Positions 12,901 through 47,101 of a DNA stretch of 64,000 bases are shown here, piece after piece. The stretch lies in the NCBI GenBank assembly GCA_008632985.1, contig QPGO01000094.1:106721-170720 (forward strand), given 5' to 3'. Within the stretch, counting starts at the first letter, position 1. Every line of letters begins with the position of its first letter. The notes under the pieces are model-generated. The model was not told where the DNA came from. It made no database searches and saw nothing but the letters and a program-made list of their open reading frames with translations. A program made the translations under genes and the position numbers. This DNA comes from Psammoneis japonica. Taxonomy: Eukaryota.

Positions 12901-12948
12901 AACAGTCCAGTTGACTGCTTGGGATAGAAAGCAAGCACTGGTGCACTT

Positions 12949-13460
12949 GTGGACGCTGTCAAGAAATGGCTGAAATTCAACCGCAGGACTGACAAGAAGG
13001 CAATGCGCGATCACACGGGTGGCGGCTGCAAGGAGATTAATCCCGCCTCGTGCTCTGGAAAGTTGAGTGCGGAAATGAAAGGCCATGTTGACGCCACAGT
13101 GAAAGTGATGGGCAAGTCTTGGAATTGTCCAGTCTTTCAGGGTGCAGTTCACCGGGGTGCACCAACATTTGTGGTGCACGTTTCAATTCGTTGCATCCTG
13201 GAGCCACCTTCATGGACCCGGCTTTTGTGAGTGCCTCTCTGAAAGAGACTGTTGCTTGTGGCTTTCATGGAAGCAAGAAGAACGCACTCTTCAAAATTGA
13301 AAGTGGATTGGGTGTGGACGTGACAAAAGAATCCAAAAGCAAGGCTGAGTCCGAAATTCTTTTTTGACCTGGTGCTTTGTTTGTGATCACGGCGGTTGAG
13401 GAACACGACGATCCCGAGTGCACAAAATGGAAATTTGTTTCAATGCAAGAGATTCATTAA
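12949..13460 (+). pseudogene. ADP-ribosyltransferase (R-S-E clade, VIP2/C3-like) pseudogene
   Basis: Reads RDHTGGGCKEIN...PVFQGAVHRG (frameshift) ...FMDPAFVSAS...LFKIESGLGVDV...AESEILF*PGALFVITAVE. Reverting CA/TG to TA gives DYTGGGY, VYRG and STS; ExE is intact. Confidence 0.75.
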
Positions 13461-14334
13461 TTTTGATGGTGAGAGACAAATGGAGCTTTGGATTTGTGCG
13501 ACAAATGGCAAACAGAAAACTTCCCGCTCCCTCCCTCCGGAGGTGAGGCCATGGGGGCCCATGTGGCATGGACGGGAGTGCTCATTCCCATCGTAGAGTG
13601 TGTGTTGTGGTGTGGGAAAGTGCGCTGCTGTTCACATTGTCAGAAGTGATGGCATTCACATTTACAGAGAACTGTCATTCGCTGTTTATTTGCATGCAAC
13701 CTCTCCTTGTGTGACATGGCTTCGCGCCCAACCTGTTGCACAGAATCCATCTTGCGGCTCGTCTTGCATTGCAATCTCCACAGTGTTCCAGGGGTGGCAA
13801 CATGTTTGGCACTTGGTGAGCAACTCCAGCAACTGCCAGCAGGAGCAAACTGGCTAAAGTTCTGGACTCAGTGAAGCGGTGGTCAGCAACTCTGCCAGTG
13901 CAGTGGTTGACGCGGCTCATGCACCCTTTTCCTTGTGACGAAACTTCAACATCAGGAGTCAGTGAGTCACTGGGCTCTTTTGAATCCTGACAAGATCTCA
14001 CAGTGTGCAGCAGTTGGGACAACGTCTTACATGTCACCAGAACCACGCAATGGCAACGTTCCCATTTTTTAGAGTGGCAACACGCAAATCATCATTGTTG
14101 TCTTTTGTCAACTTTTGTGTTCATTTGAAAGCCATGTCTGTTCAACAGGGCCCTGACGTGCATGCAATCTTGTGCACCTCCATGACACAGTGAATCTGCC
14201 ACCACAGCATTTCTGTCTCCGCAAGTTCAAATTTTTCTGTTGCCCGCTGCCAGCTCTGCACAAACCTGCAGTGCCTTGTGAGCCCTCTCGAGTGGAAAGC
14301 ACAGAACGAACCATGCGTGCCGCATGAACAGGGC

Positions 14335-19692: not shown

Positions 19693-20570
19693 ATGAGATG
19701 TCTCTTCGTCTTGGCTTTGTCAGTGCCAGCTGTGTCATGTTTCTCCTCTAAAACGGTACCGGCGCCTACCGGTACAACATCGGTGGTGTTCGATAAACGC
19801 ACCCGATTTGCTCGGAGGTCGAAGGCAGTGGCGTTTGGTGGGGCAATCACTGAAGGCAACAACAGGGGCGAAGGCCTGACAGGACGAATTTCTCGACTTT
19901 GCAAAAGTTATTCGAAGAAACTAAACAGAAAGCCGCTCGTAACGAAGAGCGTCACATCGGCTGTCGTGAGTGGACTTGGGGACATTTTTGCTCAGTGGCT
20001 TGAAGCGCACGCGGCAGGGAATGGATTCACGTTGGATTTTGCTCGCTTCGGTGGTTTCACTTTAGTGGGGGGATTGTATGTTGGGCCGTTTTTTGAATTG
20101 TGGTATTCGCAACTGTGGAAATTAGGAAGGTGGATGGAACGTCATCACGCCTTGTCAAAGAGGTTGCAGACAATAGCACAGGTTTTTGTGGACCAAACCG
20201 TTGGTGTGGCTTTATTCTTTCCGCCATACTTTTACGTCTATGAGGCTTTTGAATCCTTGATGGCGCTGAGGGGTAAGGTCACGGCCTTTGAAAGTGCAAC
20301 CGAGAAGAATCTGTTACGAAATTGTGCACTAACGTCATTTTGTTTTTCTTTCGTCACGACTTGGAAAAAATTTTATGAACAGTTCCTGTAATGGCGAACG
20401 CTTATTTGAATTTGAAGGAGCAGATTGCGTCGGTGCTTTTGATGCAGTACTATATCTGGCCCCTGGCAAACTGGATAAATTTCGCCTATGTGCCAGAAAA
20501 TCTTCGTGTTCTGGTCAGCAACGTTGTCGCCGTTTTCTGGAATGCACTGTTGTGTACCCTGGTTGCCTGA
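19693..20570 (+). CDS. Mpv17/PMP22 family membrane protein; exons 19693-20272 and 20383-20570
   Basis: KPLVTKSVTSAVVSGLGDIFAQ and VDQ; after intron 20273-20382, WPLANWINFAYVPENLRVLVSNVVAVFWN. N-terminal signal MRCLFVLALSVPAVSC-F. Confidence 0.9.
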
Positions 20571-21379
20571 TTCTTGCAAAGCCTCCAACAAGCTAGCATG
20601 CGTTCTGGTTTGTTTATGCCGTAGCTTCTTTGCACGACTTGGTACACTGGTCTCTCAAATCTTCATCTTGACTGCCTCTCAATACCAGAGATGAGCTACT
20701 GCACCTCAAATAGACCTACGCTACGTCTCATTTCGGCGTTTAAGTTTGCTACCAACAATACAGAAAGAGGGGGGTGTATTCAAGCCACTGAGATAGCCGT
20801 CGCCGATCCTTGCATTCTTGTTCATCTTGAAAGTAGAAAAGAGGCGTTCAATCTTTTGGAGGGCGCTGGTTTTTCCAAGTCGAATCCGTACTTTAGTACA
20901 ACAGGGCAAAGTACACGTGCTCTGTACCATGAGTGCTGGCAAATGGCTCGCTCTGCTCAAACAAGTGGTGGGGTCGACTCTCTATGAAGCGGCTCTAACA
21001 GGAAAATCTCGATCGAGTCACCTCTTTGCCACTAGACCGCCTCGTGACGGAACCGTCAACCTTCCCGACGGTCCCGATGTTATGTCTCTTCTCGAACATG
21101 TATTCGTTACGTCCCTTAAGTCTTCTCGGCTATGCGTCATGTCTTTTCCAAGAGACTCTTGGCTCGCAGTGTCGGTGTCGTTTACACTTGAGCACTCGGT
21201 GCAAAATGGATGCCATTACCTTGGAGGGTGACTTGTGCGGCCTTAAGGGAGCCTTGACGGGCGGCTGTGCCGCTTTCGCGCACACGGGCCAATGCGTCCC
21301 TCTAGAGTAGCAAACGGAAAGGGAGTGCCAGGCCGCCAAGAACAGGGCGCAAGAGATTGATCATACCCCCACCAATCTC

Positions 21380-21678
21380 ATGAGCGAGTTGCAGCGGTTA
21401 GAAGCCAGACAAGCCGATCTCAACCACATTCTGACCGATTTGGAACGCAAGGCTGAAACGCTGCAGCACGACATTACCTCGCGCATCACTCTAGCCGACA
21501 AGCTTTGAAAAATGGATTTCCTGGCGTTGGAACGTGACATGGACAGTTTGGCCAAGCACGTGGAATGGTTGCAAGAAAAAAAAATGAAAACCGAATGACC
21601 GCCACCTTGTCGGATGAGGAGCGTGCGACGCTCCAAGAGCTCAAGCCTTCGCAGCAGGAGCTTTCCAAGAAGCTCTAA
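21380..21678 (+). pseudogene. Coiled-coil coding fragment with an internal stop and a frameshift (copies at 37366-37664 and 60239-60537)
   Basis: MSELQRLEARQADLNHILTDLERKAETLQ...KL*KMDFLALERDMD...; the same lesions are present in all three units. Confidence 0.35.
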
Positions 21679-21950
21679 CGTCAGGGGAGCGTTGTCGATC
21701 ATCTCGGGCGTTGCTTGTTGAACCGTTGATTGTAAAAAAGTAGGCCTACGGAATGGTAGTTAACAAGGGAATTCAGGGTAGAACACGTAGTAGACGGCGG
21801 CTTGCAGAGGAGCCGCAAAATTTGCAAAATTGAACTAAGATGACAGATTCAAAGATGGCAAATTTTGACAATATGTAGCTAAGTAATTTAGAAACACACA
21901 GGTCGTACCAAATACCCACCTTTGTTGTTCCCCGTCTTGCTAAAAGGTAC

Positions 21951-24900
21951 CTAAACCGCATACAACGATGTTTCGTTGACCGCGCTGTCAACAACCTCAG
22001 GCACAGACGCACTCTCATCTTGATTACGGTTGGAGTCTTCAGCAGTCACTGCCTTATTGTCTTCTCCATGAAGCCGCTTCCATACACGAGCAAAGAAAGC
22101 CTTTTGAGATCCTGTCTTCAATCGATTGGTTTGCTCCTTCCTTAGTTTTTTGAGCTCAGCAAGGTGTGTTTTTAACGCCGGTGGCGCAAATTCGCAACTC
22201 ATGACATGTGTGTGGACGCTTACAAAGTTGGATTCAACAGCATTTACAGATGACCAAAAGAACTTGCGACTCTCAACTTGCCCAGCACAGTGTTTGCACT
22301 TGACTCCAATACATCCGACATCCTTGAGACGTCTTTTGTTCCTATCGGCTTCAGTGAATCGACACGGCTGAAGCTGCTCCATCACGACGTACAAGAAATC
22401 CGCAATGCAGTTTCGATCTTCAGGAAGAACAAGTGGCTGACTTACGGAGGTGACGTCGGAAGCTACCTGGGCAAGAATATCTAGTGACACTGCCGGAGCT
22501 GTTGGGGTGGACGGATCGCGTGAAAATCGGATGCCTTTGTCGGTATCCACCAATCCTATCTTTTTTGCGGAAGTAATCCAGTAGTGTCTAGTTGCGAGTC
22601 CTTTCGATCCCTTGGTACTGGCGCTTTGCAAAGAAAGGAAACGCTGACGGATGTCCTGGGGCACCATCTTGCATTCACCTAGATGAAACCTTTGAATGTC
22701 GGCCACGGACTGGTAAATCCGAGAAATAGAAAATGGGAAGCACACTGCTCTATTCGATCTTTCCTTAGCAGGAAGCGAGTGGCAGTGAATGCATCCGATA
22801 CCGACTTGTCCCAATACAACAGAAAAGGTTGTGGGAGTCCTTACAGCAATATCCTCCTCGGTCGCACTAAAGGCGCAGACATTCTCGCGTAGAAAACAAC
22901 GAAGCGGACTCAACGCCATCTTGTCTTCTGAAAGAGATAGCTTGATTTTGCCAGTGAAATCCGTCGTTGTGCTGCCTTCGTCCTGCGCGGATGGGGCGTA
23001 AGAAGACGAATCGCTTGATAGCGCTGACAATATAGAGTGAAGCGCTTGAGGAGACATGTCCATCGCGTTACCCTCCGAAGACTTCTCCTTCTCTTCCTTG
23101 GACGCCGTATCGTCATTCCCACGGACCATCTTCTGAGGAGACGACGACGAGCCATCAGAGGAAGATGAAGGGGATATCTTGCTCGTAGAATTCGCCAGTG
23201 GTCGGGTTACCGTGGGTTCTTCGCCCGCCTTGAAACGGACGCCAGATGGCCCATCAATCATTCCCATTTTGGTTGCAGACTTGACAAAGTATTGCATCGT
23301 TGTGCCAGTGCTTCTTGTCTTTACTGCCTTCAGCTCCTCCAGATGCTCCTTCAGTGACGAAGGAACAAACCGACAATGTTGAAAATGATCAAGTTTCATG
23401 TCAATCACCGTTCGATAGATGCGCTTGATTGATGAAGGATAGCATACTGCTCGCTTGACGCGGTCGCTGGTCCTCTCAGTATGACGACAATGGATGCATC
23501 GAAGGCCAACCTGACCTACAACAACAGGGTGCTTGCGCCCAGGAGCAGGAGCTTCGACATCGCTTGTAGTCGCCGTAAATACTTCAATGTTTTCACGTAT
23601 AACACAGAGGGTCTCGCTAAGAGATATTCGATCTTCTGCTTGAGCCAGCAACAAAAGCGATTGATTTGTGGAGTTGACCTTGGCTGTTTCGTGACTTTCT
23701 TTGGAAGGGTGTGCGCCATCCATGTATGAATACATGCCCGTGCTAGTCATTGATGCCTGACGGAGCAGCTCAATCGGCGTAGGGTCACAAAGGGGTCTGG
23801 AGTGGGTGGACGTTGGCACACTTTGAACCACGTTGTGGCACATCTTGTCTGATTCTCCACCGTTTGAATCAAACGTAACTTGACGTTGAACGGATGATTC
23901 CAGCGACAAAGAGAATGGAATCCCGCTATTGTTGTACCTTTCATTTGATAGAGTCGACAATGCACCCACTTCGTCACGAGCTTGAATATCCGACCCTTGA
24001 AATGATCCACCCCAATACTCATTTCTATTTCGATAATTGGGTGATGTTGGCGAAGGATACCATGGCGATGACCCCCACCCTTGGTCCCTGTCAGATTCAT
24101 GCTGTCGACCGGAGATCCGCATCCGACTACCGACGGAAGATTGTGAGCGCGCTGCAGGATAGAAGCTGTGCTCATGGGAACCCATTGATTCATCACGAGG
24201 TTTGTTCCAGGAAACGCTTGCTTCTCGATTACGTTCGCGGCGCTCTGATGTACTTGGATGAGCCCCGTGCTGGTCCCACATCGCGAAATCTTGAGGTGCA
24301 CCCCCAAAATGGGTTAGATTGTACCGATTCCTCATATCTAGATCTCCACGCGTTCCTCTGGGTATCATTGTCTTGTACTCTCGCCTGCTGTCTTCCTTAA
24401 GCTTCATTCGCTTTGGTGGAATGAACGCCGGATGAATATGTTGTGTCTGGTATTCATCTCCTGGCCGACTATGATGCCAAAAGTTACGTTTAAGCTTCTC
24501 TGGCCCTTTGTCTTTGGCTTCTTCTCCAACATATGATACTGGCGGTGCTTCGGCTGGGCTTGGGGGTATCTTAACTGGTTCGTTCCCCGTTGAGCGAGGA
24601 ATCCATTCACGCCCAGACGCAACATTATGATTCTCGTAGGGATGCCAATGATCATCTTGACGGACGGATTCGGCGAGGTGACGGCCATCACCCCTGCTCT
24701 CATAGCGATGTTCTACCGCTCTTTCTGAGCGATACGCACGTGAATTGGTATTCAAATCATCCCTTTCGTCGTCAATGCTAAAAGATGAAGTGACCACAGC
24801 TTGCAGCCGTCGCGGTGTGCTGGGTGTAGGCCTAGGATACGACGTATCTTGCTTCTGATCAATAGGTGAAGGGTACTTTGACAAGTTTGGATATTCTGAA

Positions 24901-24995
24901 TGCTCCCCCATCGGATAGTAAGATTCAGCAGAGCCGGCATTTCGACGCTCTGACAGATTTTCCGGCTGCGAGACGCTAGCTCTGTTCGAAGACAT
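21951..24995 (-). CDS. 1014-aa protein with a disordered N-terminus and three copies of a putative zinc-binding CxHC...H...C domain
   Basis: Long intact ORF. Repeats: VGLRCIHC...RAVCYP...HFQHC, VGIGCIHC...RAVCFP...HLGEC and IGVKCKHC...HVMSC. Confidence 0.9.
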   Translation of the reverse strand: MSSNRASVSQPENLSERRNAGSAESYYPMGEHSEYPNLSKYPSPIDQKQDTSYPRPTPSTPRRLQAVVTSSFSIDDERDDLNTNSRAYRSERAVEHRYESRGDGRHLAESVRQDDHWHPYENHNVASGREWIPRSTGNEPVKIPPSPAEAPPVSYVGEEAKDKGPEKLKRNFWHHSRPGDEYQTQHIHPAFIPPKRMKLKEDSRREYKTMIPRGTRGDLDMRNRYNLTHFGGAPQDFAMWDQHGAHPSTSERRERNREASVSWNKPRDESMGSHEHSFYPAARSQSSVGSRMRISGRQHESDRDQGWGSSPWYPSPTSPNYRNRNEYWGGSFQGSDIQARDEVGALSTLSNERYNNSGIPFSLSLESSVQRQVTFDSNGGESDKMCHNVVQSVPTSTHSRPLCDPTPIELLRQASMTSTGMYSYMDGAHPSKESHETAKVNSTNQSLLLLAQAEDRISLSETLCVIRENIEVFTATTSDVEAPAPGRKHPVVVGQVGLRCIHCRHTERTSDRVKRAVCYPSSIKRIYRTVIDMKLDHFQHCRFVPSSLKEHLEELKAVKTRSTGTTMQYFVKSATKMGMIDGPSGVRFKAGEEPTVTRPLANSTSKISPSSSSDGSSSSPQKMVRGNDDTASKEEKEKSSEGNAMDMSPQALHSILSALSSDSSSYAPSAQDEGSTTTDFTGKIKLSLSEDKMALSPLRCFLRENVCAFSATEEDIAVRTPTTFSVVLGQVGIGCIHCHSLPAKERSNRAVCFPFSISRIYQSVADIQRFHLGECKMVPQDIRQRFLSLQSASTKGSKGLATRHYWITSAKKIGLVDTDKGIRFSRDPSTPTAPAVSLDILAQVASDVTSVSQPLVLPEDRNCIADFLYVVMEQLQPCRFTEADRNKRRLKDVGCIGVKCKHCAGQVESRKFFWSSVNAVESNFVSVHTHVMSCEFAPPALKTHLAELKKLRKEQTNRLKTGSQKAFFARVWKRLHGEDNKAVTAEDSNRNQDESASVPEVVDSAVNETSLYAV

Positions 24996-25349
24996 GGTTT
25001 TTCAACTGATGAAAGGAACGACAAGAAAACAGTAACTAACGTGTGTTAGTCACGACAACTTGAGTATCTCAAGTTAGCACGACACGAGTCTCCGACCACT
25101 TTTTTCTCTCTATGCTAGACAGAAAAAAAAATCCCTCAGGTGATCGGTCGACTGCACCGGTAGTCTAGGTCTAGACTCGTTGACGAACGAAATGTGACGA
25201 CTCACCGTACCGGTATCCGCGAGAAGGTCAGAAGATATTTGTGTATGCCAAAGTCGTCAAGGAAGGTTTTGCGGGGTGTGGCAGCAGAAAAGATGTAGGC
25301 CATCCAGGATGGTGAGAAGTGTGTAGGACCTTCTAGCTAGAGTAGACGC

Positions 25350-27290
25350 CAATGAAGATGAAGATGGCGGTCAAGCATGAGCAACAACCTTCCATTTGAC
25401 TTTGCCCTTGAAGGTTGATTTGGCTTTGCTGCTGGCCACTTCCACAACAACATTTGCCACAGATGGTGGCTTGATGAAGTCATGTTTGTTGTTTGTCATG
25501 CAGCAGAAGGTGCGGTCATCAACTCTGACATTGAAGGAGTCGGCGTTGAAGTTGTGATCACGGTGATCTTTGCAGTGGCAGCCATGTGAGCAGGGTGTGG
25601 TTTGGCATGTGGCAGGCTGTGATTTGAGGCCCATGAGTTGGAGTGCAGCTCCATTGCACACTGTGGAGCATTGGCATTTTCATCAGATGCAGCGCCTGTT
25701 GGTCTTGAGACAGTTGCTTGGGTTTTCTTGGTGGTCTGCGACTTGTCAGGAAGCACTCCATTGCTCGTCACAGCCAGGAACACAGGAGTGGAAAGGAGAG
25801 TGGCCAACTCAACAGTTCTGCCATTGTGCAGCAGATCATGTTGAGTGCACAAGAGAATGGCAGGAAGACTGCACATGTGCCGCAAAGCAGCCACAACTGC
25901 AAGCAGTGCTTGACTTGTTGTTGTGCAGTGCTGGCCAACACTTGCCCTTCATCTGACACATCTTGTGCACCAATGTTTGCCATGGAAGCAGTCAGGTCTG
26001 ATTCATCCTTGTCCATGATGGAGGTGCAATCCTTGGCAAGGTGTGAAGCCCAGCATTTGTGCAACTTGCAGTGCTTGCATGTGCAACCCTCTGCTGTCTT
26101 GGCATGTGGGTGTCCCTCTTTTGGAGTGGTGTTGCACCAGGCATGTTTTCTGGAGAACAGATGCTTCTTGCACCCATCAGACAGGATCTTCAATTTCACC
26201 CCACAAGAGACATGCCTCAAAATGTTCTGCTTCCTCTTTGATCAAAATGCTTCCCAACCCATCAAAGGTTCTGGGTGCTGCTGAGCTCAGCCTGCCTCTC
26301 CACAATGTCCGGATGGCTGTCCTGGAGCCGGCATGCAGATCCAGTCTGATTGACACACTGCAGCACCTGCTGCATTCTCAGGAGGTGCGGGCAAAACAAC
26401 CTTGCCATTCAAGCAATCTTGTCAGCCCTCATCACCTCAACTCTGCCCAAAGTGACGGCGCGTGCTTGCTTCCACATGGGTGCACCTTTTTTCGAATGGC
26501 AGCTGCCATGTTCCAAGACCCAAAGAGAAAGAGGGCACAGCAACACAACTCACGGAGAATTTCAGAGGTGACAGACCTGTTCCAAGAGTTCTTGATCTGG
26601 CAAAGATTGGTGACAAGAGATTGCTGCACCAGCTGCAGCCCCCCTGATCTGGATCACCAATGTTCTTCTTGTTCTTCTTGCAATCACTTTGTGTCTTCTT
26701 CCTTTTTTCCAGACTTGCAGCCCAGCATTGAAAGGTGAAGTCTGAAGATTTGGAGAATGAATTTCAGCCATTGTTCCAGAGTGGCAATGTGCCAGAAGAA
26801 TTGTCAGTGAGAGCCGGTGACTCTGCCAGTCTCCAGTCATGTGACACCATGCAACATTTAACAGCTGACCCAGATCCCAGCAAATCAGTTGCCTTGACAT
26901 CTGTGAATGTGGGTGGTGTCATTGATGGCGCACTTTGCAGGAACCAAAGTGGCGTGCCGCTGCACTGAAATGTCCCGGTGTTGAGCACAAGTCATTTTGC
27001 ACCATGTCTCTGCCACCTGCTGCATGCCTCTCAAGTCCAAATCACAGTTGATGTCATCTTCCTCCCTCATGTTGTCACAGCTGTTGTGCAAGATGAGTGC
27101 AGTGCTGCTGTGTCATGTGAGGCATGATGCTGCTGTTGTTTCTTGGCCGCTGCAATGGACTTCACAAGGGAGAATGCTGCCAGAGCTAAATCCAAGACAA
27201 TGCCAAAGTCCTCAACCCTTGACAACCTGCAACAACAAAACATCAAAACACCTTGAGTGTGAGCTGTGATGCACGGGGGTGGCAGGTGAG
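25350..27290 (-). mobile_element. Degenerate copia-like gag-protease relic, TpA-depleted (copy at ~41330-43270)
   Basis: CKHCKLHKCWASHLAKDC knuckle-like motif followed by protease-like DSFNVRVDD..CMTNNKHDF...GKVKW. Boundaries approximate. Confidence 0.5.
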
Positions 27291-27349
27291 GTCAGCATGG
27301 TTGTCATTTCAAAACATTTGTTCCAACTCCAGCAGCTGACAATGAGCGT

Positions 27350-28180
27350 CATGTCCCAAGAAGTGCGCTTCATTTTCATTGCCCTGTCATCAAAATTTTC
27401 TTCACCTTGTCTTCATAAAATTTTCTTCTGATGCAACACAAACATGTTTCCCCCACCAAGACAATGTGCAGAACTTTGCGCAAATGAGACAAATCGTCAA
27501 TCACCACATTTTTCATGCTGAGGCAGTGCATCACAAACAGAGTGTGCAGAATTGTGCTGAACATTCTCCACACTGAACCATCCATTCCAGCTCCAGCAAA
27601 CAATGCATGGTGTGTCCGAAGAAGTGTGTGTCCAATGGGAATCTTTCGAAAATCACCCGTGACGCAAAAAGCACAAAATGATTGTGGACACCTGCAGAAC
27701 CTGCACGTTTTTGTGCTGAAACTGTCATGTTCACACAATTTGTGCAAAAATGGACTTGACTGTTGTCGGGTCAGGTGTGTTTTTGCAAATGCATTGAAGA
27801 AAAACACACCTGGTCAGAAAACAGTCAAGTCCATTTTTTGCAAAGTTAAAATTCACCAAGGACAGACAGACAGACTTTTCAACAATTGTCTTGGTGCTGT
27901 TCTGCACACTTCTGCGCAAATGACTCCACAGCATGAAAGATTGCTGTTCATTTTCATTGCCCCACCATCAATTTCTCCTTCACCTTTCTTGGTGTGGGAA
28001 GCATGTTTGCAATGCATCAGAGGAAAACTTTGTGAAGACAAGGAGGAGAAATTGCTCCTCCACCTTTCTTGGCACCGGAAACATGTTTGTGATGCATCAG
28101 AGGAAAACTTCATGAAGACAAGGAGGAGAAATTGATGATGGGGCAATGAAAATGACATGCACTTCTTCGGACACATCATC
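27350..28180. repeat. Foldback-like structure with ~100-bp inverted arms and an internal ~98-bp hairpin (copy at ~43332-44162)
   Basis: ~27371-27451 is the reverse complement of ~28077-28154. Hairpin at 27744-27841: gcaaaaatggacttgactgtt...caggtgtgttttt / aaaaacacacctg...aacagtcaagtccattttttgc. Confidence 0.8.
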
Positions 28181-30604
28181 ATTTTTCATTGCAATGCACT
28201 GCCTTTGCTGCAGTGTGAAAAATGATGTGTTTTGCCGATTTGTCGGCAATTTTTTCATGTTCGTGGCCGGTTGAAGGAAAAGAGAAAAAAAGAGGGGATT
28301 CGACCATTGAACACACACACAATTGACCATGCAACCAGGGCCAGAGTTGTGCTGGCTTCTTTTGGTCCAGGGTGGTTGCTGCAGGTGCAAAGAGATGTGA
28401 CACTGAGTGTGTGCCACCAAGCTGAGCAGCCCAGCTTGGGTGTCAGAGCCAAGCCCTGCCAGGCCAGCTGCCCTGGCTCCAGCTCTGCTCCTCCCAGTGT
28501 GCGCGAATTGTTGAAGGAGCACCACATTGACTCAAAGGCTGTGTTTTAAGTGGGCAGAGAGAAAAAAACTGTCATCTTGACTGGTGCTTGCTTCAGACCC
28601 TGCATCATGAGTGCAAGCTCCTCTTGAGAAACAAGCAAGAACAGCCATTTTTGGTGCCTCTCTTTGGTTGCCCACTTGGCCGCATTGCCAACAAATCTTG
28701 AACCCAACTTTGCTCACAGTTTCTTCACTCTTCAACCACAAAACAAATGGTGGGCACATGCCATGTGGCTGCTTGGCAACAAGAATGTGATGCCAAGCAT
28801 GTGCTGCACACCAAGGAGCCAAGCAGCCCAGCTCAGCTTTGAATGGAGCCCCAGGACAGCAGCCAACTCTGGGTGATCTCAGCATGGTTTGCTTGTTCAA
28901 GCTGTGCTGCACTCACCCCACAATGCTCTGTGTTGTGGTGGCTTCTTGTTGCAAGCCGTGGCTGAGTCAGCAGCCAGCGCCAGGGGCCCATCTTGCAAAG
29001 GCCAAACACACATGTTGACCCTGTGCAAAGCTGTGTGAGGGGCCAGGCACAGGAATTTGAAACAATGGCTTCACAGCCATTGGTCCCAAGTTGTCATTTG
29101 GTTGGGAGCCATTGCTGAGGGGCTGTGAAGTGAGGGGTTGGGAGCCCAGCCAGGAGCTCACACTCTGTCACAAAGTGCTGCCACAGCTGTCTTTGCATTG
29201 CAGCCAGCCAGGTGTGGTTGACCCCAAGTTGGTGCTTGATTTAGAGTGACTGCCAAGGAGCTGTGAAGTGTGGGGTTGGGCAGTCCAGCCAGCTCGCACT
29301 CTTTGCTGACAGCAGAAAGTGCTGTCGCAGCTGTCCTTGCATTGTGGTGCCAGCCAGGTGCACACATGGCCAGAGCAGCCTTGGCACGTCCTGCTGACAA
29401 AGCTGGCAAAGATGGCAACTCTTGTGGTTGAGCCACCTGGCATGCAGGAGTTCTGGGCACACTCCTGGGAAGTCAAATGGGAAGGAGGGCTCAGCATTGC
29501 CGCCAGTGCCAGGCACAAATGTCAGCTTGTCTTGAGAGAGATTTGAGCCCACACAGCCCCAAGTTGGGTGTCTTGGCTGGCAAGTTAGAAAGCATTCTTG
29601 AGCACATTCTGGGATGTGGGCAGCACTGTCACCAAGAGAGCTGCTCTGCAGAGGAAGAGGGAAACAGGCAACAACATTTTGCAAGAACTGTTTTGTGTCA
29701 ATGGTTGGGTGGGATGGGGCAGCATCTGGACTTTGACGGAGCATTTGGTGGACAAAGCTTGAGCACAGAGAGCTGTCCACTCAAGCTCCACAAGTGGCAC
29801 ATTTCAAAGGTGACACCAATGTGTTCATGCATCAACATGCCTCAAGCTGCAAGTCGCACAAAAAACTGCCACCAACCTTTCTCAACCAACCACCATCATG
29901 GACAGAACAGGTCAAGAGGTTCGAAACAAGAGTGATTGCTTCATTGACTCTCTTCTTGTTTCATGCATTCAAGAGCTTGTTCTTGTCCTTCTCAGGTGTT
30001 TGTTGTGCATTGTTGTCTCTTTTAATTCAAGTGCAAAGAGGAGTCACTTTTCTTGTTTCTGTCTCTTGAGATGTTGTTGGTTGTTGAGTGATGCAATTTT
30101 TGTTGCTTGTCACATTTTTGGAAATGTTGGCAAACCCGATCACTGCTTGATTGTCAGCCCATTTGCTGCTTTGAGTCTCCATGGCATGAAATGCCACAAT
30201 TCCAGAGCCCTCAATTGTTTCATCAAACGCAGTGCTTTGAAACACGTCCAACATCAACTCGACTCAGTTGAAATCCCAGTTTGTGGGCGATGAAAAATCA
30301 CGAATGTCAAACAAATGGCTGTTTTCGACATCAAGATCCCCGAGTTCAATCCAAGTGTGGCGGCGCACCTCACAGCTTGTGGCCATGACGCACACAAGCA
30401 TGCCTCATTGTTGTCATCACATGTGCTCACATCGAAAATGCCAACAGATCAAAGTTCAGGAAAAGGATGGAGCGCAAATTCATTTGTGCATTCACCAGAG
30501 CGGCACTGGCGCAATGACACCTGCGGCAGAAGCGATCAAAAATCCTCACTCATCGTTGACATTTTGTGTTGCTCAGAATTTGAAATCTGACCACCACCGT
30601 CAAG

Positions 30605-30738
30605 CATTTAGCTTTCTTTGTGTCGAAGTGGAAATGACACTCAACGATTTACACTGACCATTTAGCTTTCTTTGTGTCGAAGTGGAAATGACACTCAACG
30701 ATTTACACCAACCATTTAGCTGTACTTTGGCTCGAAGT
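30605..30738. repeat. 54-bp tandem repeat, two copies plus a partial (copy at ~46587-46720)
   Basis: catttagctttctttgtgtcgaagtggaaatgacactcaacgatttacac at 30605 and 30659. Confidence 0.9.
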
Positions 30739-31119
30739 CAGACAATGAGATTGGGTTATGGGCTTGTCGTTAACCAGCCACGAGCATGAAATCTTTACCG
30801 ATTTGTCTCATCTACGTTCTGTGTATGTAGTATTCAGTATCATCTTGGTAATGTTTCCCGATTTGTCTCATCTACGTGAAGTCCTGCGCACTATCCTAGT
30901 ACGGGAAACACATCTTTTTCATACTAAGGCAGTACGTTAAAAATAGAGTATGTAGAATTATACTGAACATTCTCCGTACTGAACTATCCGTTCAAATGGC
31001 GCGCCGTCGCTCTTGACAAACGAACGAAAAACCCCAAACCGCAGACAGCAAAAAACGTAAACACGCAACGTCGCTTAGCTTCCAGCTTCTTTGGTCCGGA
31101 CGAGATACAATAGATAACG

Positions 31120-34100
31120 ATGTCAACGAGGAGAGACACAGCGACGGGAGAGCATCTATCAGTCACACGTTCGGATGTCAAGATCAATTACGAAGGCGTA
31201 GTTAGCAAAGAAGAGTTCTACCGCAAGCACGATGAGCTTCTTCAAGGAGCCCATCAGATTTGCAAGACAATGAGCCGTGCGTCCGCTCGAGAAACAGTCC
31301 TGCTCATAGGACTGCTGAACGACATCAATACAGCGGTTATCGCCAAGGGAGCCTACAATGATGCGGTGCAGCGGTTGGGTCCACTAGGAAAAATTCTTAT
31401 GCCCGCCTGGAACACGAGAGAACATTGGCGCGCGGACCCCGGGGTTTCTTCTGGACTTCGTTTTGATACTCTGAAAAGGAAAGCAAGAGAAGTCTTGGTG
31501 ATGGAGGACATATATGAGGTTGCCATCAGCAAAGCAAAGGAGATTCCAGACTGCAACATGAGAAAACTAAAGACGGCGATGTCGGCGTATTATTTCAGAG
31601 CGGAAAGCCTTGACCTTCTATTGCCATGCTCCGAGGTATCGCCGCCGGCAGCGACTGGAGAATTGGTGATGGCCGCCCAGAATCCTCATATTGGGATTCC
31701 GTCTTACAATTTTGTCGGAGGAGCGCAGCTTGGCCGCAATTACGGTCAAATGGAAGGAATGGTGAGATGTTTTCCAATGGTGATTGAAATGCAACGACAG
31801 ACGCTTGAACGAGAGCGGGAGCTACGCGATCGAGCTGAAGCACGGCAGGCGGATCAACAAAAAAGGGAGCGGGAGCTACGCGATCGAGCTGAAGCAAGGG
31901 AGCGAGAGCTACGCGATCGAGCTGAAGCACGGCAGGCGGATCAACAAAAAAGGGAGCGGGAGCTACGCGATCGAGCTGAAGCAAGGGAGCGAGAGCAACA
32001 CGATCGAGCTGAAGCACGGCAGGCGGATCAACAAAAAAGGGACGAGCAGAAAGAAGCCAAGTATCGCCAAGAGACCGATCGGGCGAATAGCGCCCACATC
32101 AACACCTTGCTCAAGCAAAACAACATCGCAAACGCGCAAAACCAGAAGTTGTTGGGGCTGATGACGAGCGAGTTTGGGAAGATCAGCAAGTCTTTGGACA
32201 TCATCACTGAGCAAGGACAAGAATCGGAACAACGTCAGAACCAGATATTGATGACTGTGAAGAAGCCACCAAATCCTACCCTCCGCCCTTCTTTCACTGG
32301 TGATAATGATGGAGTTCGCAATCTCTTTCATGATCAGGTGAGCAAGCAAAAGATTGTGTTGGTTGTCGTCCTGTGCAGCATTATCAAATATATTCACCCC
32401 CGTTTTGTCTTTATTCTACTCTACAATACGTGTACAGGTATCCAAGGATGACTCGTCCACGCCCGACCAGAATAAACCTGGTGCAAAAGGTGTTGATAAG
32501 CCAAATGATCCGGAGTCGTTCAAAACTCCCATGACCAAGTGTGCTGTTGGGAATAAGGTACGTAGCCAAGCCACATTTATGTTATCGTCCTGCGTTGCCT
32601 CTTTGTATAATGTTACCGCATCAGATTTATTCACGCCCTTTTTTGACTTCTGTTCTACTTATGAAGGCCTCATTGGACGATGGTGCGAAAAGCTCCGGTC
32701 TCGGTGCGCCAAAGAACATTGGGAATAAGGTATGCAAGCGTCCACTACGTATCGTCCTGCTTTGGCTCTGGTATCATTAACACATTTATTTAACCCCGTT
32801 GTGCTTTTATCCTACTCTCTAGCTGGAGTTCGGCATGTCCCCTCCCATGGACGATCTTGTCGACCTAAAGGATGACGATGACTCAGTTGTGTCCGTCACT
32901 TACTTGTCGACGTCCAGTGTCAGAAAACCCCCGTCATTGGACGACGGTGCGAAACGCGCCTGCACCGGCACGCCGAAGAATATTGGGAATAAGGTATGCA
33001 AGCTATCACTACTACGTATCGTCCTGTTTTGACTCTTGTATCATCATCACATTTATTCACCCCCATTGGGCTTTTATCCTACTATAGCTGGAGTTCGGCG
33101 TATCCCCTCCTCCTTCTCCAACCCTGGACGACCTTGTGAAGCCGAACTTGTTGAACGAGATGTTCAACACCTGCATGACGGAGGAACGGGAGTTCTTGCC
33201 ACAGAAGCAATTGGAGAAACTGGAAGGCGTTCACGAAGAGGTTTTGGAGGGTGGGTTCACATTTCCGCCGGTACTGTGCAGCGACCCAGACATAAGCCTT
33301 TCTAGGCTTGCTTCAGCCCTGGGCCAGAACAACGACAAGCGGCCCACTCTAGGAAGCGTGGTGTTTCGATTGGCCGACTCCTTCCTATACTTTTCGGAAA
33401 ATGAGGTCGACCCGTCCTCCTCAATGGAAGAGGATGATTCTCTAACTTTGGCAGTGGCATTCCAGGGCATGAGGTATCGTGTGGCCAATTCAATTGAAAT
33501 CTCATTTCTCAACGGCGATGAGGCCACAATTGAACTCGTAAGCATGGATCAGTTTGGATCCTCTGAGGCTTTGAGTCGCCTTGTGGAGACGCTGGTAGGA
33601 ATTGAGAGCATCGAGAAACTCACCTTTGCCAGTTCTGTGCGCAACGGCACCACTGTGCTTCCGATCAAGGCGGACGCTTTCAAGAAGCTTGCGAACGCTT
33701 CATTCACGATAGAGCTTCAGGCGGTCGACCTGACTGATGAGCAACAGTACATGTTGGCGAGAAGCAGCGCACCTTGGACGTTTGACCGTTGCAGCTGGAA
33801 CAATAATGCTTTCCTTTTCACAGGGCATGCTCGTTTCACTGAGTCGCCTTTGAAGCTCAGATTCGTTCAAGGATTGCTCTCCAGCAACGGTGATGTCAAA
33901 ATAGGCCTTGGAAACCTCACGCGAATAACAGAGGCTGGCAAACTGGGTAGCCTTCATATCGAGCGCCTAAAGCTACAGCAGGGAGAGGAGGAAACATTCA
34001 AGGCACTCTACGACGCAGCCAAGGAGAGCGATTGTAATTTCACCTTCAAAGATGTCGCGCATGAAACGCTAGGCTCGAAGGGGCTGAGAAAGTTCGTCGA

Positions 34101-35097
34101 GATTCCCAAGCTTGGAACCGCGGTCATGCCTCCGGCAGAGACAGCAGCCAATTCTTTTTCCGCAACAATGCCGACGGCCGACAAGTCATCCGCGTCCTCG
34201 ACAGTTGACAAGAAGGAGGACGCCGCTCCGACACCCGCACCAGCTGCCGCAGCTGATGGAGAAAAGGTATGTCTGTTTGATGTCTCCATCATGCTGTTAA
34301 ACGACAGAGCTTCTAACGCGTGTCTCGATTTTGTTTTTTCCAATTTGCAGAAGAAAGCACATGTTACTTCGGCGTTCACCGCCGAAAAACAAGCGGTCGA
34401 GTCCACCACCGCCAACGAGAAGATTACTTTGATTTTCAGGGAAAAGGCAATGAAGAAAAAAGTTACGGTCAATTGCAAAGCCACCATGCAAGGCGCTTTC
34501 AATGCATACAAGGAGGGAAGAATTGATGTAAAGTCTCCCGACCAGTTTATCTTCAAGTTCGACGGCTTTGAAGTCGAACCTACGTCAACACCAGAATTGT
34601 TGAAGATGGCGGACGGCTACATGCTTGACGTGGAAGTCAAAAAAGGCACAAGGGTGCAAGTTCAGCAAGAGACCATTGAAATATTGGATTCCGATGAGGA
34701 TGAGACGGTGGAACCCACTCGTCCGAATGTTGTCGAGAAATGTTTCATTAGCGGCTGCATGTATCCCGAAGTCTCAGGAACTCACAAATGCCATCTCAAG
34801 AGCTGCGAAAACCACATTCATCATCTTTGCGCTGATTACTATGATCTGCGGGTCGGAGAGGAGCTTAATGTGTATTGTTGCCGCGAGCACCTTATTTCCG
34901 CTGAAGGCGATGAAGCTGACGTGGACAACGCGAAAGGAGACGAAGGCATTGACGCGGACGAAGCCGGCGGCCTACTAGCAGCAGAGGATGAGAAAGCCAA
35001 GTGCGCCGGGGTAACCCTGAAGGGCACCCCCTGCCAACGTTACCCCTTGACGGGGGAACAGTACTGCAAGGACCATGGAGAAACATCTGAATTATGA
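31120..35097 (+). CDS. ~1165-aa six-exon protein: coiled-coil repeats, SUMO-like domain, acidic SIM-like motif and two Cys/His fingers. Exons 31120-32337, 32438-32557, 32667-32729, 32823-32993, 33088-34266, 34351-35097
   Basis: Five phase-0 GT-AG introns; the first four join the 443-aa and 653-aa ORFs in frame and the fifth lies within the 653-aa ORF. FKFDGFEVEPTSTPELLKMADGYMLDV resembles SUMO/Rad60-SLD. C-terminus CAGVTLKGTPC...YCKDH. Confidence 0.8.
31810..32045 (+). repeat. Coding tandem repeat (RERELRDRAEARQADQQK / RERELRDRAEA)
   Basis: Repeated gagctacgcgatcgagctgaagca and cggcaggcggatcaacaaaaaaggga. Confidence 0.95.
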
Positions 35098-35695
35098 GCA
35101 CGAGATTGTATCTCGTCCTCACAGTAGATAGCAATTGAAGTGTTGTGACTTCAGTTGGGAATATTATAAAATCAATAAACTCATTATTGCAAATCAAATC
35201 ACCACTGTAAGATTCTAGACTATGACACTAGACTATTACAACAAATGGACAGACGTAGAGCCCATAGTCAAGGGTGACAAAGGCCAATCGCCCTGCCGGT
35301 ACAGCAGTTGTATTCCTCTGGTAGTGCGCTTTGACTTTGGGCAGAGGAGGGTGTCTCGTTTATTGCTACTTCCGGATTCCCAAGGCAACCCCTTCCATGT
35401 GGCCCACATTCGCGTGTCTGTTGAATTCGATTTCGCTACACCTTCACTCCAGTACAAGTTGCAAGACGTGCAATTGCTCGTGGAACCCTATGCCATTTCT
35501 GTTCAGGGTGTGGCTCACTTTCTCCAGGGTTTTTTTCTCCACCATAACAACGAATTGCCACAATCCTCTCCTCGTCCTGCACAGAGGCAAGACTTTTCTA
35601 GGAATCATGGGACGCCAAGAAATTTGTCAAGGACACGAGTAGTACGGGCTTGTCGGCGGCGCTTCCAGAAGAACAGACAGATCTATTCCAGAATG

Positions 35696-35804
35696 TGACA
35701 GACATCCGAGACGGGGAGTACACTCCCTTGTGTCGGACAGACTAGCATAGACAGCATGGAGAGATCCGATGATCTCTCCTTTGCTCACTTTCTTTCTCAT
35801 CTAG
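35696..35804 (+). mobile_element. Solo LTR of the copia element found in unit 2
   Basis: Identical to 51677-51785 and 58569-58677. Its left flank matches the 5' LTR flank and its right flank matches the 3' LTR flank. Confidence 0.93.
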
Positions 35805-36113
35805 TAGGCAACGGCACAAGACCGCCACGTGGACCACCGCCGCCTCCGCCCAGAAGCGACAAGACTACCACTAGCTAGAGCGGGTCCACCACCCAAATAT
35901 GACAGGGCAAGAAATTTGACGACTTGCATTTCCACCAAGCCTTACAATCCCAATGACTATATCATTGAAACGAGAAAGCGTTGGGTCAATCCTCGGTTCT
36001 TGACGCAACAATGAGGGGTGGGGTTCGTATTTAGAAGCTAGAAACTTCTTCTCTCTAGCCAGCTAGCTAGCGAACTAAGTAGCTGTCTTGTTGTTGCTGT
36101 AGCTCCTCTTTGG

Positions 36114-46900: not shown

Positions 46901-47101
46901 TCATACTAAGGCAGTACGTTAAAAATAGAGTATGTAGAATTATACTGAACATTCTCCGTACTGAACTATCCGTTCAAATGGCGCGCCGTCGCTCTTGACA
47001 AACGAACGAAAAACCCCAAACCGCAGACAGCAAAAAACGTAAACACGCAACGTCGCTTAGCTTCCAGCTTCTTTGGTCCGGACGAGATACAATAGATAAC
47101 G

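Follow-up and report, generated by a model that had tools for sequence, protein, structure and literature searches.

The window, a stretch of 64,000 nucleotides, is diatom nuclear DNA, and an ORF for MGDG synthase found in it points to diatoms. A dinoflagellate origin was rejected, since the spliced-leader motif had no match when it was looked for. A 15,986-bp repeat occurs in tandem in the window, with unit 1 on the forward strand at 20194..35807, unit 2 at 36180-51788 (99.70% identity) and a partial unit 3 at 58568-64000 (99.2-99.4% identity). A 113-bp host segment (51676..51788, forward strand) is repeated at 58568-58680, and the two copies flank an insert that holds block C, one of four TA-depleted blocks (A, B, B' and C). 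The blocks show an observed to expected ratio (o/e) for TA of 0.03-0.08, and their edges are sharp to within about 40 bp. Block A (1..13000) contains 35 TA in 13 kb (TA o/e 0.04, CG o/e 0.16) and continues past the left edge of the window; its tail (13001..14330) contains eight TA in 1.33 kb, with CpG mildly reduced only (34.6 per kb). Block B (25344..30608), located between divergent ORFs, contains eight TA in 5.27 kb (TA o/e 0.03, CG o/e 0.22), and block B' (41324..46590) is its tandem copy. Block C (51853..58567, forward strand) is a degraded Ty1/copia retrotransposon with a TA o/e of 0.08 and a CG o/e of 0.58. Flanks of the blocks show TA o/e of 0.58-0.60 and CG o/e of 0.93-0.97, and TA o/e in host ORFs is likewise 0.58-0.60.

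Comparison of dinucleotide frequencies revealed that the YpR total (TA+CG+CA+TG) is 235.5 per kb in block A, 244.3 in block B and 236.0 in block C, against 237.5 in normal DNA. Alongside the drop in TA, CA+TG rises from 140.5 per kb in normal DNA to 192-229 in the blocks. The constant YpR total indicates that TA and CG were converted and not lost. Depletion is limited to TA and CG, the self-complementary YpR steps, and both end as TG/CA.

Content of the TA-depleted blocks

In block C, gag, integrase, reverse transcriptase and RNase H are recognisable across shifted frames. No LTR pair was found for this block: transition-tolerant alignments of its ends scored no higher than shuffles (74 vs 92; 45 vs 68), and the sole strong match in the end comparison was the 113-bp host repeat. 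Block A carries a gag-like retrotransposon remnant on the reverse strand (1153..1563), in which 70 aa show 47% identity to a protein of 343 aa with a CCHC zinc knuckle; three tyrosines of this relative read His, Cys and His in the remnant.

Pfam analysis of ORFs from blocks A and B (88 ORFs of at least 90 aa at E <= 0.01, 38 of these also at E <= 0.3) returned only a fragment of an ART (ADP-ribosyltransferase) domain in the tail of block A (13092-13364), a weak YqaJ match and noise. A longer homolog of the ART fragment was sought and none was found. The YqaJ identity was rejected, the block A ORF in question being gag-like by homology. The same analysis identified no recognisable protein domain in block B and no retroelement genes in block B or in the tail of block A. 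Block B has internal 80-bp repeats, both tandem and inverted; the tandem copies differ by three adjacent CA/TG double changes, which points to mutation later than the duplication, and such double changes occur between genomic copies too. The right part of block B' belongs to a multi-copy family, with a summed depth of 3,600-7,700 compared with about 140-190 on unique DNA. TA-free blocks lose TAA and TAG stops, so that long spurious ORFs occur in all frames, and tyrosine is absent from them; both features will mislead gene prediction and transposon annotation.

Overall, TpA loss is confined to transposon or foreign-like blocks, block C being copia and block A containing a gag remnant. Such confinement may also be expected if an ADAR- or APOBEC-like reaction had edited retrotransposon RNA or cDNA and the mutated copy had been inserted afterwards, the block edges being element ends. 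The sharp edges, the presence of copia in one block and of a gag remnant in another, and copies that differ mutually at TG/CA, as independently edited cDNAs would, are consistent with editing before integration; in addition, the LTRs through which action in situ might have been seen were sought on the copia element and not found. The lack of retroelement genes in block B and the tail of block A argues against it, as do the strand and context data presented below, and we consider this explanation improbable.

The 79-bp paralog pair and the direction of change

A 79-bp paralog is present inside block B (27509..27587, forward strand), where it contains no TA and no CG, and again 307 bp to the right of the block (30915..30993, forward strand), in single-copy DNA of normal composition, where it contains 11 TA and three CG. 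A preliminary description of this DNA had reported that the two copies align without gaps, and our analysis recovered the same alignment, in which 14 of the 15 differences are transitions. As described there, all 11 TA of the outside copy are rewritten in the inside copy, six to TG and five to CA; all three CG read CA; and a single other base differs. Each TA has exactly one base changed, and the one difference among the 51 bases outside TA and CG is a C/A transversion. None of the 31 other A/T bases carries a transition. Plain blastn supports homology of the segments (E = 9e-14, 81.0% identity), and in purine/pyrimidine space the identity is 78/79. The chance of at least 14 of the 15 differences landing on the 28 TA/CG positions of the 79 is 3.9e-7. 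The outside copy indeed lies beyond the depleted block, as the stretch 30024-30608 is free of TA and a normal TA density resumes at 30609.

A second pair named in the preliminary description, 43491..43569 and 46897..46975 (both forward strand), gives the same alignment. Its members are letter-identical to the inside and outside copies, respectively, and the pair does not constitute an independent replicate because it sits in the next unit of the 15,986-bp tandem repeat.

The first pair had been taken to show a context-specific change that acts on both strands and is nearly saturated, and all three properties are borne out at a larger scale. TpA-restricted change is seen in the pair and across the blocks; six TG against five CA in the pair are paralleled by 13 Cys against 11 His in the copia block; and the loss of 11/11 TA in the pair is matched at block scale, where normal DNA has 39.2 TA per kb and blocks A, B and C have 1.5-4.5. 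Change at CG is most plausibly ordinary CpG decay, a process separate from this reaction.

For the pair itself, which comprises two sequences with no third or outgroup copy, polarity is read from block composition instead of a tree. That TA is ancestral had been proposed in the preliminary description, and conserved tyrosines in the copia block confirm this direction independently for that block. At 30 conserved-Tyr columns from an alignment of 40 homologs, the block reads Cys at 13, His at 11, Tyr at three and another residue at three. Other conserved residues are kept (Trp 15/15, Gly 52/56, His 23/24). Isoleucine reads Val in 9/32 columns and threonine reads Ala in 11/38, both of which are expected where TA spans codon borders. 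A second set of columns gave a similar picture, with Tyr at two, Cys at 12 and His at eight of 25, whereas 77% of 609 other conserved columns are kept. Near-complete TA loss next to this retention may lend indirect support to a mutation rate in the block that is orders of magnitude higher than in the genome at large. Intact copia relatives show a TA o/e of 0.6-0.8; hence the family is not TA-poor by nature.

The opposite direction would start from TG/CA and have RIP-like C>T changes at CpA/TpG create the TA of the outside copy; it draws on the fact that a pair of two sequences alone cannot be rooted. It is excluded by the copia polarity (Cys or His at 24/30 conserved tyrosines) together with the ordinary composition of the flank (TA o/e 0.6, CG o/e 0.95), which lacks a RIP-like TA excess. 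It also demands three changes from CA to CG, for which A>G mutation is required, a type that RIP does not produce; and the 16-kb repeats are untouched at 99% identity. We regard its probability as negligible. The 16-kb tandem triplication (99.2-99.7% identity) is normal in TA and CG outside block B, and this absence of mutation indicates that the process is not RIP and is not triggered by duplication.

The depleted sequence itself is well reproduced by reads. A 2,379-bp read-derived contig corresponds to 41325-43702 inside block B' with no other letters and at unique-DNA depth, and a 1077-bp read-derived contig, also at unique depth, spans 46897-46975, the twin of the outside copy. Contigs of 2.4-3.8 kb built from k-mers at a depth of about 140-170 reproduced TA-free and normal sequence alike, with 0-3 other letters. 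The sequencing run used (X1) may be the assembly's own data, so that this agreement excludes consensus error and does not count as an independent sample. Other sources of the pattern would be foreign DNA that is intrinsically poor in TA, or an artefact of base calling or polishing where bases are modified; in favour of an artefact are this possible identity of run X1 with the assembly's source data and a library type that is without record. Long k-mer contigs with 0-3 other letters are nonetheless impossible from noisy reads. With strand-mixed miscalls, roughly half of the sites should read TA or CG, against 0/11 in the pair, and the outcomes are single transitions to TG or CA and almost never CG. 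Metagenome assemblies of other samples show the same loss of Tyr to Cys or His (in locus L065, Tyr 2, Cys 8 and His 6 of 17 columns), and the TA o/e of the intact relatives speaks against intrinsic avoidance. An origin of either kind is therefore considered very remote.

Sequence context, copy specificity and possible chemistry

A total of 47 metagenome copia loci with inferable ancestral states were used as relatives. Across these loci the per-base transition rate at TA is graded and copy-specific, from 0.00 to 0.31, whereas the transition rate at CG is uniform, at 0.06-0.18 in all. The five most affected loci hold 300 ancestral TA, which now read TG (77), CA (55), TA (156) or other (12). Strand choice is random in four of the five hypermutated loci and clustered in the remaining one, L079 (z = -2.55), so that the process may act by single hits or along short single-strand tracts.

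Analysis of neighbouring bases in these five loci revealed A>G rates of 0.319 at TAC, 0.275 at TAT, 0.157 at TAA and 0.128 at TAG; in all 12 contexts with a 5' base other than T the rate is 0.011-0.051, and after 5' A it is 0.024-0.047. In the window, the 73 TA surviving in blocks A, B and C occur as YTAR (41), YTAY (17), RTAR (13) and RTAY (2), compared with YTAR 128, YTAY 178, RTAR 160 and RTAY 183 among 649 TA in normal DNA (chi-square 55.5, p = 5e-12). The rates in relatives and the surviving TA of the window thus agree independently on a preference for TAY over TAR. Viewed from the side of thymine this is a preference for RTA, so adenine and thymine chemistry are not separable by the motif.

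ADAR prefers U or A over C over G as 5' neighbour and G as 3' neighbour. ADAR-type hyperediting of double-stranded RNA was rejected, as 5' A is at background and 3' G is the least favoured (TAG 0.128 vs TAC 0.319). Editing of cDNA or of a single strand is strand-biased. Both facts bear on editing before integration: the two strands are about equally affected and intermixed in the copia block, in the relatives and in the pair, and the strict 5' T with a preferred 3' pyrimidine is unlike ADAR. Moreover, the main text of a recent preprint describes the same signature arising de novo in integrated single-copy DNA of Bigelowiella natans (Mettrop et al., 2026, bioRxiv 10.64898/2026.01.13.699255).

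Change at CG behaves differently from change at TA. In the hypermutated loci C>T occurs at NCG at a rate of 0.053-0.177, and the 49 other loci show 0.066-0.121; elsewhere the rate is 0.013-0.050. In all related copies, transitions at CpG run at about five times background. Of the 23 substitutions between blocks B and B', 9 are at CpG. The CG>TG/CA component, uniform over copies, fits decay of methylated CpG, the methylation itself being presumed.

The present data demonstrate the signature, its polarity, the extended motif and its confinement; they further show that it does not depend on duplication alone and that related elements in other samples carry it. The cause is very probably a directional hypermutation specific to TpA. 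Such a targeted process would turn T:A into C:G solely at TpA and on either strand, each TA becoming TG or CA, and would favour 5'-TAY over 5'-TAR. It would strike some copies of an element hard and spare others, halt sharply at block edges and reach about 90-96% saturation. A second, slower process, presumably the ordinary decay of methylated CpG to TG/CA, would affect all copies alike. The expected outcome is irreversible missense inactivation (Tyr to Cys or His, Ile to Val, Thr to Ala), in which stop codons would be removed and none created.

As to chemistry, the most likely route is deamination of adenine in DNA to inosine, which is read as G, by a TadA/ADAT2-like deaminase, presumably directed to silenced foreign DNA; we give adenine deamination slightly less than an even chance. 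TadA and ADAT act on U33-A34 of tRNA, so that A>G with a 5' U/T is their natural context. The tRNA targets of eukaryotic ADAT2/3 mostly have a purine after A34, and TAY is hence closer to the target of bacterial TadA (UACG) than to those of ADAT2/3. Taken as a whole, the explanation in which the 79-bp pair consists of one unmutated and one mutated paralog, the latter in a transposon-derived block, with targeted TpA hypermutation plus CpG decay and a deaminase as the agent, has in our estimate a probability of roughly 55%.

The same signature would also follow from chemistry on thymine, or from a symmetric mark maintained at palindromic TpA in silenced DNA: an oxidised thymine (5-hydroxymethyluracil, for example) or N6-methyladenine, copied like 5mC at CpG, could lead to T>C by mispairing or mis-repair. 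Loss of only the self-complementary steps TA and CG, both to TG/CA, is what two maintained marks would leave; single and mostly strand-random events (4/5 loci) suit slow independent hits; and the RTA/TAY preference is compatible with either base. In dinoflagellates, 5hmU preferentially replaces T at TpA. We know of no thymine or adenine mark of this kind at TpA in diatoms. TA depletion outruns CpG depletion in block C (TA o/e 0.08 vs CG o/e 0.58) and likewise in the tail of block A, and it is copy-specific where CpG decay is uniform. Because TA loss is faster and differs between copies, episodic enzymatic attack is favoured over passive decay of a mark, and a symmetric mark or thymine chemistry is judged rather unlikely.

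Implications and comparison with known systems

We tentatively suggest, as a possibility, that diatoms carry an active defence based on a DNA adenine deaminase, homologous to the Bigelowiella system and a mirror image of RIP. It would recognise silenced mobile or viral DNA and not duplication, and would edit 5'-TAY in resident nuclear DNA, whichever the strand, to the point where hardly any TA survives. If this is correct, the defence would be old and shared across the SAR supergroup, and nature would supply an adenine editor for DNA with specificity for TA. A naturally occurring enzyme that deaminates adenine at TA in nuclear DNA would be of interest to genome-defence biology and to base editing. 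Transformation and gene-editing tools exist for diatoms, which places the responsible enzyme within experimental reach.

Context-specific T:A>C:G hypermutation of foreign DNA has been reported once before, in a 2026 preprint on a rhizarian alga and without a known enzyme. For diatoms, no description of TA>TG/CA hypermutation emerged from our literature searches. The diatom footprint, with graded versions in environmental relatives, widens the phenomenon to major marine primary producers. It further indicates that the process acts on retrotransposons, separates it cleanly from CpG decay and from duplication-triggered RIP, and adds a testable extended motif, TAY over TAR.

The CG>TG/CA component resembles methylation-driven CpG decay through deamination of 5mC, with CpG o/e of 0.16-0.58 in the blocks. 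Loss of TA is unlike such decay in that it is faster, copy-specific and affects the opposite base pair.

Similar to RIP in Neurospora and other fungi, dense irreversible transitions are found in transposon DNA in a dinucleotide context, sharply limited to the element, and copies diverge mutually. RIP, however, changes C:G to T:A (mainly CpA>TpA), raises TpA and creates stops; the diatom blocks show the converse, T:A to C:G, with TpA erased and the TAA/TAG stops lost. Duplication sets off RIP, whereas the diatom 16-kb triplication was left untouched. Fungal RIP depends on a homolog of the RID/DNMT-type cytosine methyltransferases. As an account of the blocks, fungal RIP was rejected on its opposite polarity, the erased TpA and the normal TA of the duplicated units.

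Hypermutation of foreign nucleic acid by base deamination, as by APOBEC3 on cDNA, by ADAR on double-stranded RNA and by TadA/ADAT2, would have a counterpart in the putative diatom reaction. The diatom pattern differs from animal deaminase editing in showing no strand bias, a strict 5' T and a preferred 3' pyrimidine. By analogy with B. natans, the diatom process probably targets DNA already resident in the nucleus, unlike APOBEC3 and ADAR.

The diatom signature matches the TpA-specific hypermutation of integrated viral DNA described for the chlorarachniophyte B. natans in the main text of the preprint (10.64898/2026.01.13.699255). There, two integrated viral regions of mutation-accumulation lines yielded 231 mutations, 230 of them A>G or T>C; the GC-biased changes all fell at TpA, with a rate of about 6e-7 per site per generation. 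Genes for reverse transcriptase and DDE were enriched among TpA-depleted CDS, and adenine deamination by a TadA/ADAT2-like deaminase was proposed for B. natans as well (10.64898/2026.01.13.699255). As far as that text describes the system, the two share T:A>C:G change found exclusively at TpA, with TpG or CpA as the product depending on strand; confinement to foreign DNA within an otherwise normal nuclear genome; patchy activity, in some lines of B. natans and in some copies of the diatom; and clusters depleted of TpA and enriched in CpA+TpG.

Several differences were also evident. The host is a diatom (Stramenopiles) and not a member of Rhizaria, another lineage of the supergroup, and the main identified diatom targets are remnants of LTR retrotransposons, in place of the giant virus and virophage described for B. 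natans. The diatom blocks are close to saturation (TA o/e 0.03-0.08), compared with 0.45 given for the NCLDV region of B. natans. CpG loss accompanies TpA loss in the diatom blocks, whereas the term 'CpG' has no occurrence in the main text of the preprint, and the preference for TAY over TAR has no equivalent there, nothing on neighbouring bases being found in that main text. Finally, the evidence from B. natans, as presented in the preprint, is measured de novo mutation, and that from the diatom is a footprint only.

Composition of the window and the 79-bp pair

The window is diatom nuclear DNA. It contains an intact MGDG synthase ORF (14749-15939) whose best matches show 65-78% identity, and the named organisms among them are all diatoms (Asterionellopsis, Seminavis, Thalassiosira-type and Cyclotella). 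The observed/expected (o/e) ratios of TA and CG are 0.04 and 0.16 in block A (1 to ~14330; ratios over 1-13500), 0.03 and 0.22 in block B (25344-30608) and 0.08 and 0.58 in block C (51853-58567), against 0.58-0.60 and 0.93-0.97 in DNA of normal composition (normal DNA); block B' (41324-46590) is the tandem twin of block B. The block edges are sharp: at the left of block B, TA occurs at 25296, 25324, 25334, 25338 and 25343 and next only at 26859, and at its right, zero TA in 30024-30608 gives way to normal spacing. The sum of TA, CG, CA and TG per kb is 237.5 in normal DNA and 235.5, 244.3 and 236.0 in blocks A, B and C, while CA+TG rises from 140.5 to 192-229. Since this pyrimidine-purine (YpR) total balances, TA and CG were converted to TG/CA, neither deleted nor avoided. 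TGA is the sole stop codon remaining in the TA-free DNA of blocks A, B and C, and overlapping ORFs of 90-240 aa occur in all six frames of the blocks (88 in A and B); these are compositional artefacts, not genes.

The preliminary description had aligned 27509-27587, inside block B, with 30915-30993, outside it, and had claimed context specificity, action on both strands and near saturation. The coordinates and the gap-free alignment are correct, and its counts were reproduced: 14 of the 15 differences are transitions, all 11 TA of the outside copy have one base altered in the inside copy (six to TG, five to CA), all three CG read CA, and one of the 51 other bases differs (a C/A transversion). 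Specificity is evident from the absence of transitions at the 31 other A/T bases, action on both strands from the TG and CA outcomes, and near saturation from the loss of every TA here and the fall of TA from 39.2 per kb in normal DNA to 1.5-4.5 in the blocks. By chance, at least 14 of the 15 differences would hit the 28 TA/CG positions with a probability of 3.9e-7. The homology is genuine (plain blastn E = 9e-14; 78/79 identity in purine/pyrimidine space). A further check proposed at that stage, 43491-43569 against 46897-46975, gave an alignment letter-identical to the first; this pair lies in the next tandem-repeat unit and is therefore no replicate or independent evidence. No third copy was found at read level, so the polarity of the pair rests on that of the copia block and on normal flank composition.

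Public sequencing run X1 contains 69% of sampled words from 24500-31500. Its contigs match 41325-43702, in block B', letter for letter (depth 172) and adjacent normal DNA with 0-3 differing letters (depth 144-150). Contigs of such length and accuracy require accurate reads, and base calls in such data would be unaffected by base modification. X1 is possibly the assembly's own data, so the match excludes errors of consensus or polishing but leaves room for an effect specific to this sample. Independently of X1, the same pattern occurs in metagenome assemblies made from other samples, and strand-mixed miscalling was rejected, as TA or CG would then be left at roughly half the sites, against 0/11 in the pair.

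Direction, motif and variation among copies

For polarity, 40 copia homologs were aligned to block C by tblastn, and 589 columns were conserved (≥70% agreement among at least 15 homologs). The 30 conserved-Tyr columns read Cys (13), His (11), Tyr (3), Phe (1), Trp (1) and Arg (1) in the window; other residues were retained (Trp 15/15, Gly 52/56, His 23/24, Ala 42/49). Tyr codons are TAY, and their single-transition products are TGY (Cys) and CAY (His). TA is therefore ancestral, as previously proposed, and the opposite scenario, a gain of TA by change resembling repeat-induced point mutation (RIP), was rejected for the blocks by the Tyr columns. The earlier observation is thus confirmed and its interpretation supported. 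Changes of Ile to Val (9/32 columns) and Thr to Ala (11/38) fit TA across the codon border, and Arg to Cys (4/43) fits CGN>TGN. Two database copia polyproteins, P0215 and P0216, contain 1.0-1.5% Tyr and 3.4-4.1% Cys (medians of 120 homologs, 3.4% and 1.8%); they look like partly hypermutated copies, with frames still open because hypermutation also erases TAA/TAG stops.

Scanning of metagenome contigs with the copia alignment retained 79 loci from 388 confirmed matches, with a bias against mutated copies since one of the two search patterns demanded Tyr or Phe. TA o/e ranged from 0.24 to 0.83. Tyr loss was graded, nearly all Tyr being retained in most loci; the conserved-Tyr columns read Tyr 2, Cys 8, His 6 and other 1 in L065 (17 columns), Tyr 2, Cys 5 and His 2 in L049 (9), Tyr 5, Cys 5 and His 5 in L057 (15), and Tyr 10, Cys 7 and His 2 in L066 (19). 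Many loci are mutually 92-98% identical, and the ancestral base was inferred where at least four relatives at ≥85% identity agreed at ≥75%. Exclusion of pairs above 99.5% identity (same element) and of loci with <60 ancestral TA bases left 47 of the 79 loci. Per-base transition rates were 0.00-0.31 at TA (45 of 147 TA bases in L065, about 60% of its TA dinucleotides), 0.06-0.18 at CG in all loci and 0.012-0.06 at other sites. As TA rates vary by locus and CG rates are steady, TA conversion is copy-specific, or episodic among copies, and can far outrun background, and CpG decay is a uniform, separate process. Across the five loci hit hardest, a set without L062 because it duplicates L066, 77 of 300 ancestral TA became TG, 55 CA and 12 other, 156 were kept, and only 1 became CG. 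Strand choice along the element was random in four of these five (runs test z +0.2 to +1.3). In L079 the TG/CA outcomes form same-strand runs (8 runs, 14.5 expected; z = -2.55), a pattern that editing in short single-strand tracts may have left.

A>G rates in the five hypermutated loci were highest at TAC (58/182; 0.319) and TAT (56/204; 0.275), followed by TAA (14/89; 0.157) and TAG (23/180; 0.128), and were 0.011-0.051 in all twelve contexts with 5' A, C or G. The same ranking appeared faintly in 49 other loci, a set omitting L062 and the intermediate L055 and L039 (TAT 0.066, TAC 0.055, TAG 0.034, TAA 0.029; other contexts 0.014-0.034). Under a TAY preference YTAR, with a purine after both adenines, should survive longest. 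The 73 TA remaining in blocks A, B and C comprise 41 YTAR, 17 YTAY, 13 RTAR and 2 RTAY, compared with 128, 178, 160 and 183 of 649 TA in normal DNA (chi-square 55.5, p = 5e-12); in the most saturated blocks YTAR makes up 27/35 (A) and 7/8 (B). These survivors are an independent check on the metagenome-derived motif, and together the two results define the target as 5'-TAY, equivalently RTA from the thymine side.

Content and history of the blocks

A degraded Ty1/copia retrotransposon makes up block C. Pfam matches there (gag_pre-integrase, RVT_2 and retroviral SH3) are weak, under gathering scores; its RT region nevertheless matches 1,263-2,694-aa polyproteins bearing these domains, one labelled Cylindrotheca (best E 6e-170; closest 44-51% identity). 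An LTR pair, as a means of demonstrating action in situ, was sought at block C and none was found. Block A contains a gag-like remnant (1153-1563, minus strand) that matches, at 47% identity over 70 aa (E = 2.7e-9), a protein of 343 aa bearing a CCHC zinc knuckle. In the remainder of blocks A and B, Pfam searches of ORFs gave no domain besides an ADP-ribosyltransferase (ART) fragment. Read-derived contigs put the summed k-mer depth at ~1,600-7,700 over the right part of block B' and the whole of block C, against ~140-190 for unique DNA; both are thus members of multi-copy families. The T:A>C:G process is limited to transposon-like blocks. Editing of RNA or cDNA before integration is improbable, as strand symmetry, the motif and the blocks without retroelement genes all speak against it.

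The ART fragment (13092-13364) is a broken NAD:arginine ADP-ribosyltransferase domain (Pfam E = 1.5e-6) for which no longer homolog turned up; the stretch bearing it (13001-14330), nearly TA-free with CpG almost normal, may be a host pseudogene or mobile cargo. A 113-bp host direct repeat (51676-51788, 58568-58680), far longer than an integrase target duplication, brackets the insert with the copia block. The first 64 bp of the insert (51789-51852) are TA-rich and unmutated. Contigs of a second run, X2, part from the window at ~51844, a hint that the locus is structurally variable or that the insert came in by a route other than integrase.

A 15,986-bp tandem unit occupies 20194-35807, 36180-51788 (99.70%) and, as a partial third copy, 58568-64000 (99.2-99.4%). 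It includes block B and long ORFs of 1,016 aa (minus strand), 445 aa and 669 aa, the last encoding a Rad60-SLD domain, and its copies differ at 47 positions, including a 6-bp indel (25207-25212). Since blocks B and B' share all TG/CA choices, conversion was finished before the 16-kb duplication; since these units remain unmutated at 99.2-99.7% identity, repetition alone is not the trigger. Substitutions since duplication number 23 in 5.27 kb between B and B' and 15 in 10.35 kb of flank; CpG sites hold 9 of the 23, though CpG is rare there. Within block B, the two copies of an 80-bp tandem (27970-28054 and 28050-28134) differ at 11 positions, among them three adjacent CA/TG double changes. Doubles of the same kind separate the window from other genomic copies at 41798/9, 44693/4 and 54966/7 (among the 40 listed of 1,670 entries). 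They are the sign that a single ancestral TA or CG went to TG in one copy and to CA in the other once duplication had taken place. Two adjacent CA-to-TG doubles also separate the otherwise 99.7%-identical B and B' (28632-28637, 44614-44619); with no TA remaining there, new TA hypermutation is ruled out as their source, and they suggest either gene conversion by a different copy of the family or a local mix-up in the assembly.

Mechanism and relation to known systems

The process is directional, TpA-specific and strand-symmetric, converts T:A to C:G and prefers TAY. It outpaces CpG decay: hardly any TA is left in block C or in the tail of block A, where CpG is only mildly reduced. The favoured chemistry, to which we assign a probability of about 0.45, is DNA adenine deamination: a TadA/ADAT2-like enzyme would deaminate adenine in DNA, and the inosine would be read as G. 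The native context of the TadA/ADAT family has a 5' U/T (U33-A34), and a TAY preference would suit bacterial TadA, whose target is UACG. Targeting may be by small RNAs or by silent chromatin. Diatom transposons are reported to be CpG-methylated, and CpG loss suggests that the blocks are methylated. The main rival, an unlikely one, is a maintained symmetric TpA mark, oxidised thymine or methylated adenine that mispairs; it would neatly account for the loss of only the two palindromic YpR steps but fits the speed and copy-specificity of TA loss less well.

RIP was rejected as a known counterpart, as it affects the opposite base pair, shifts TpA in the opposite direction and has a duplication trigger that is absent here; ADAR-like editing does not match the motif. 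No report of a TA>TG/CA signature in diatoms was found in the literature searched, most subscription journals lying outside its coverage. As far as its 2026 preprint describes it, the closest known case is Bigelowiella natans, where 231 of 302 nuclear mutations in mutation-accumulation lines fell in giant-virus and virophage regions, the giant-virus region being integrated, and 230 of the 231 regional mutations were A>G or T>C (10.64898/2026.01.13.699255). In that account every GC-biased change lay at TpA, mutations arose at ~6e-7 per site per generation, and only some lines were affected. The B. natans genome has 124 TpA-depleted, CpA+TpG-enriched clusters, its 324 TpA-depleted CDS are enriched in reverse-transcriptase and DDE genes, and DNA adenine deamination is hypothesised there also (10.64898/2026.01.13.699255). 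The window carries, as a footprint, every defining feature described there that sequence allows to be tested. It differs from that description in its host, a diatom, in the degree of saturation, in its identified targets (copia and gag remnants), in the CpG decay accompanying TA loss and in the TAY preference; a term search of the preprint's main text found no mention of neighbouring bases (10.64898/2026.01.13.699255). The diatom case joins a very recently described and mechanistically unsolved genome defence, and adds an internal pair that cleanly shows the states before and after, a mass balance that proves conversion, support from other samples and a new detail of the motif.
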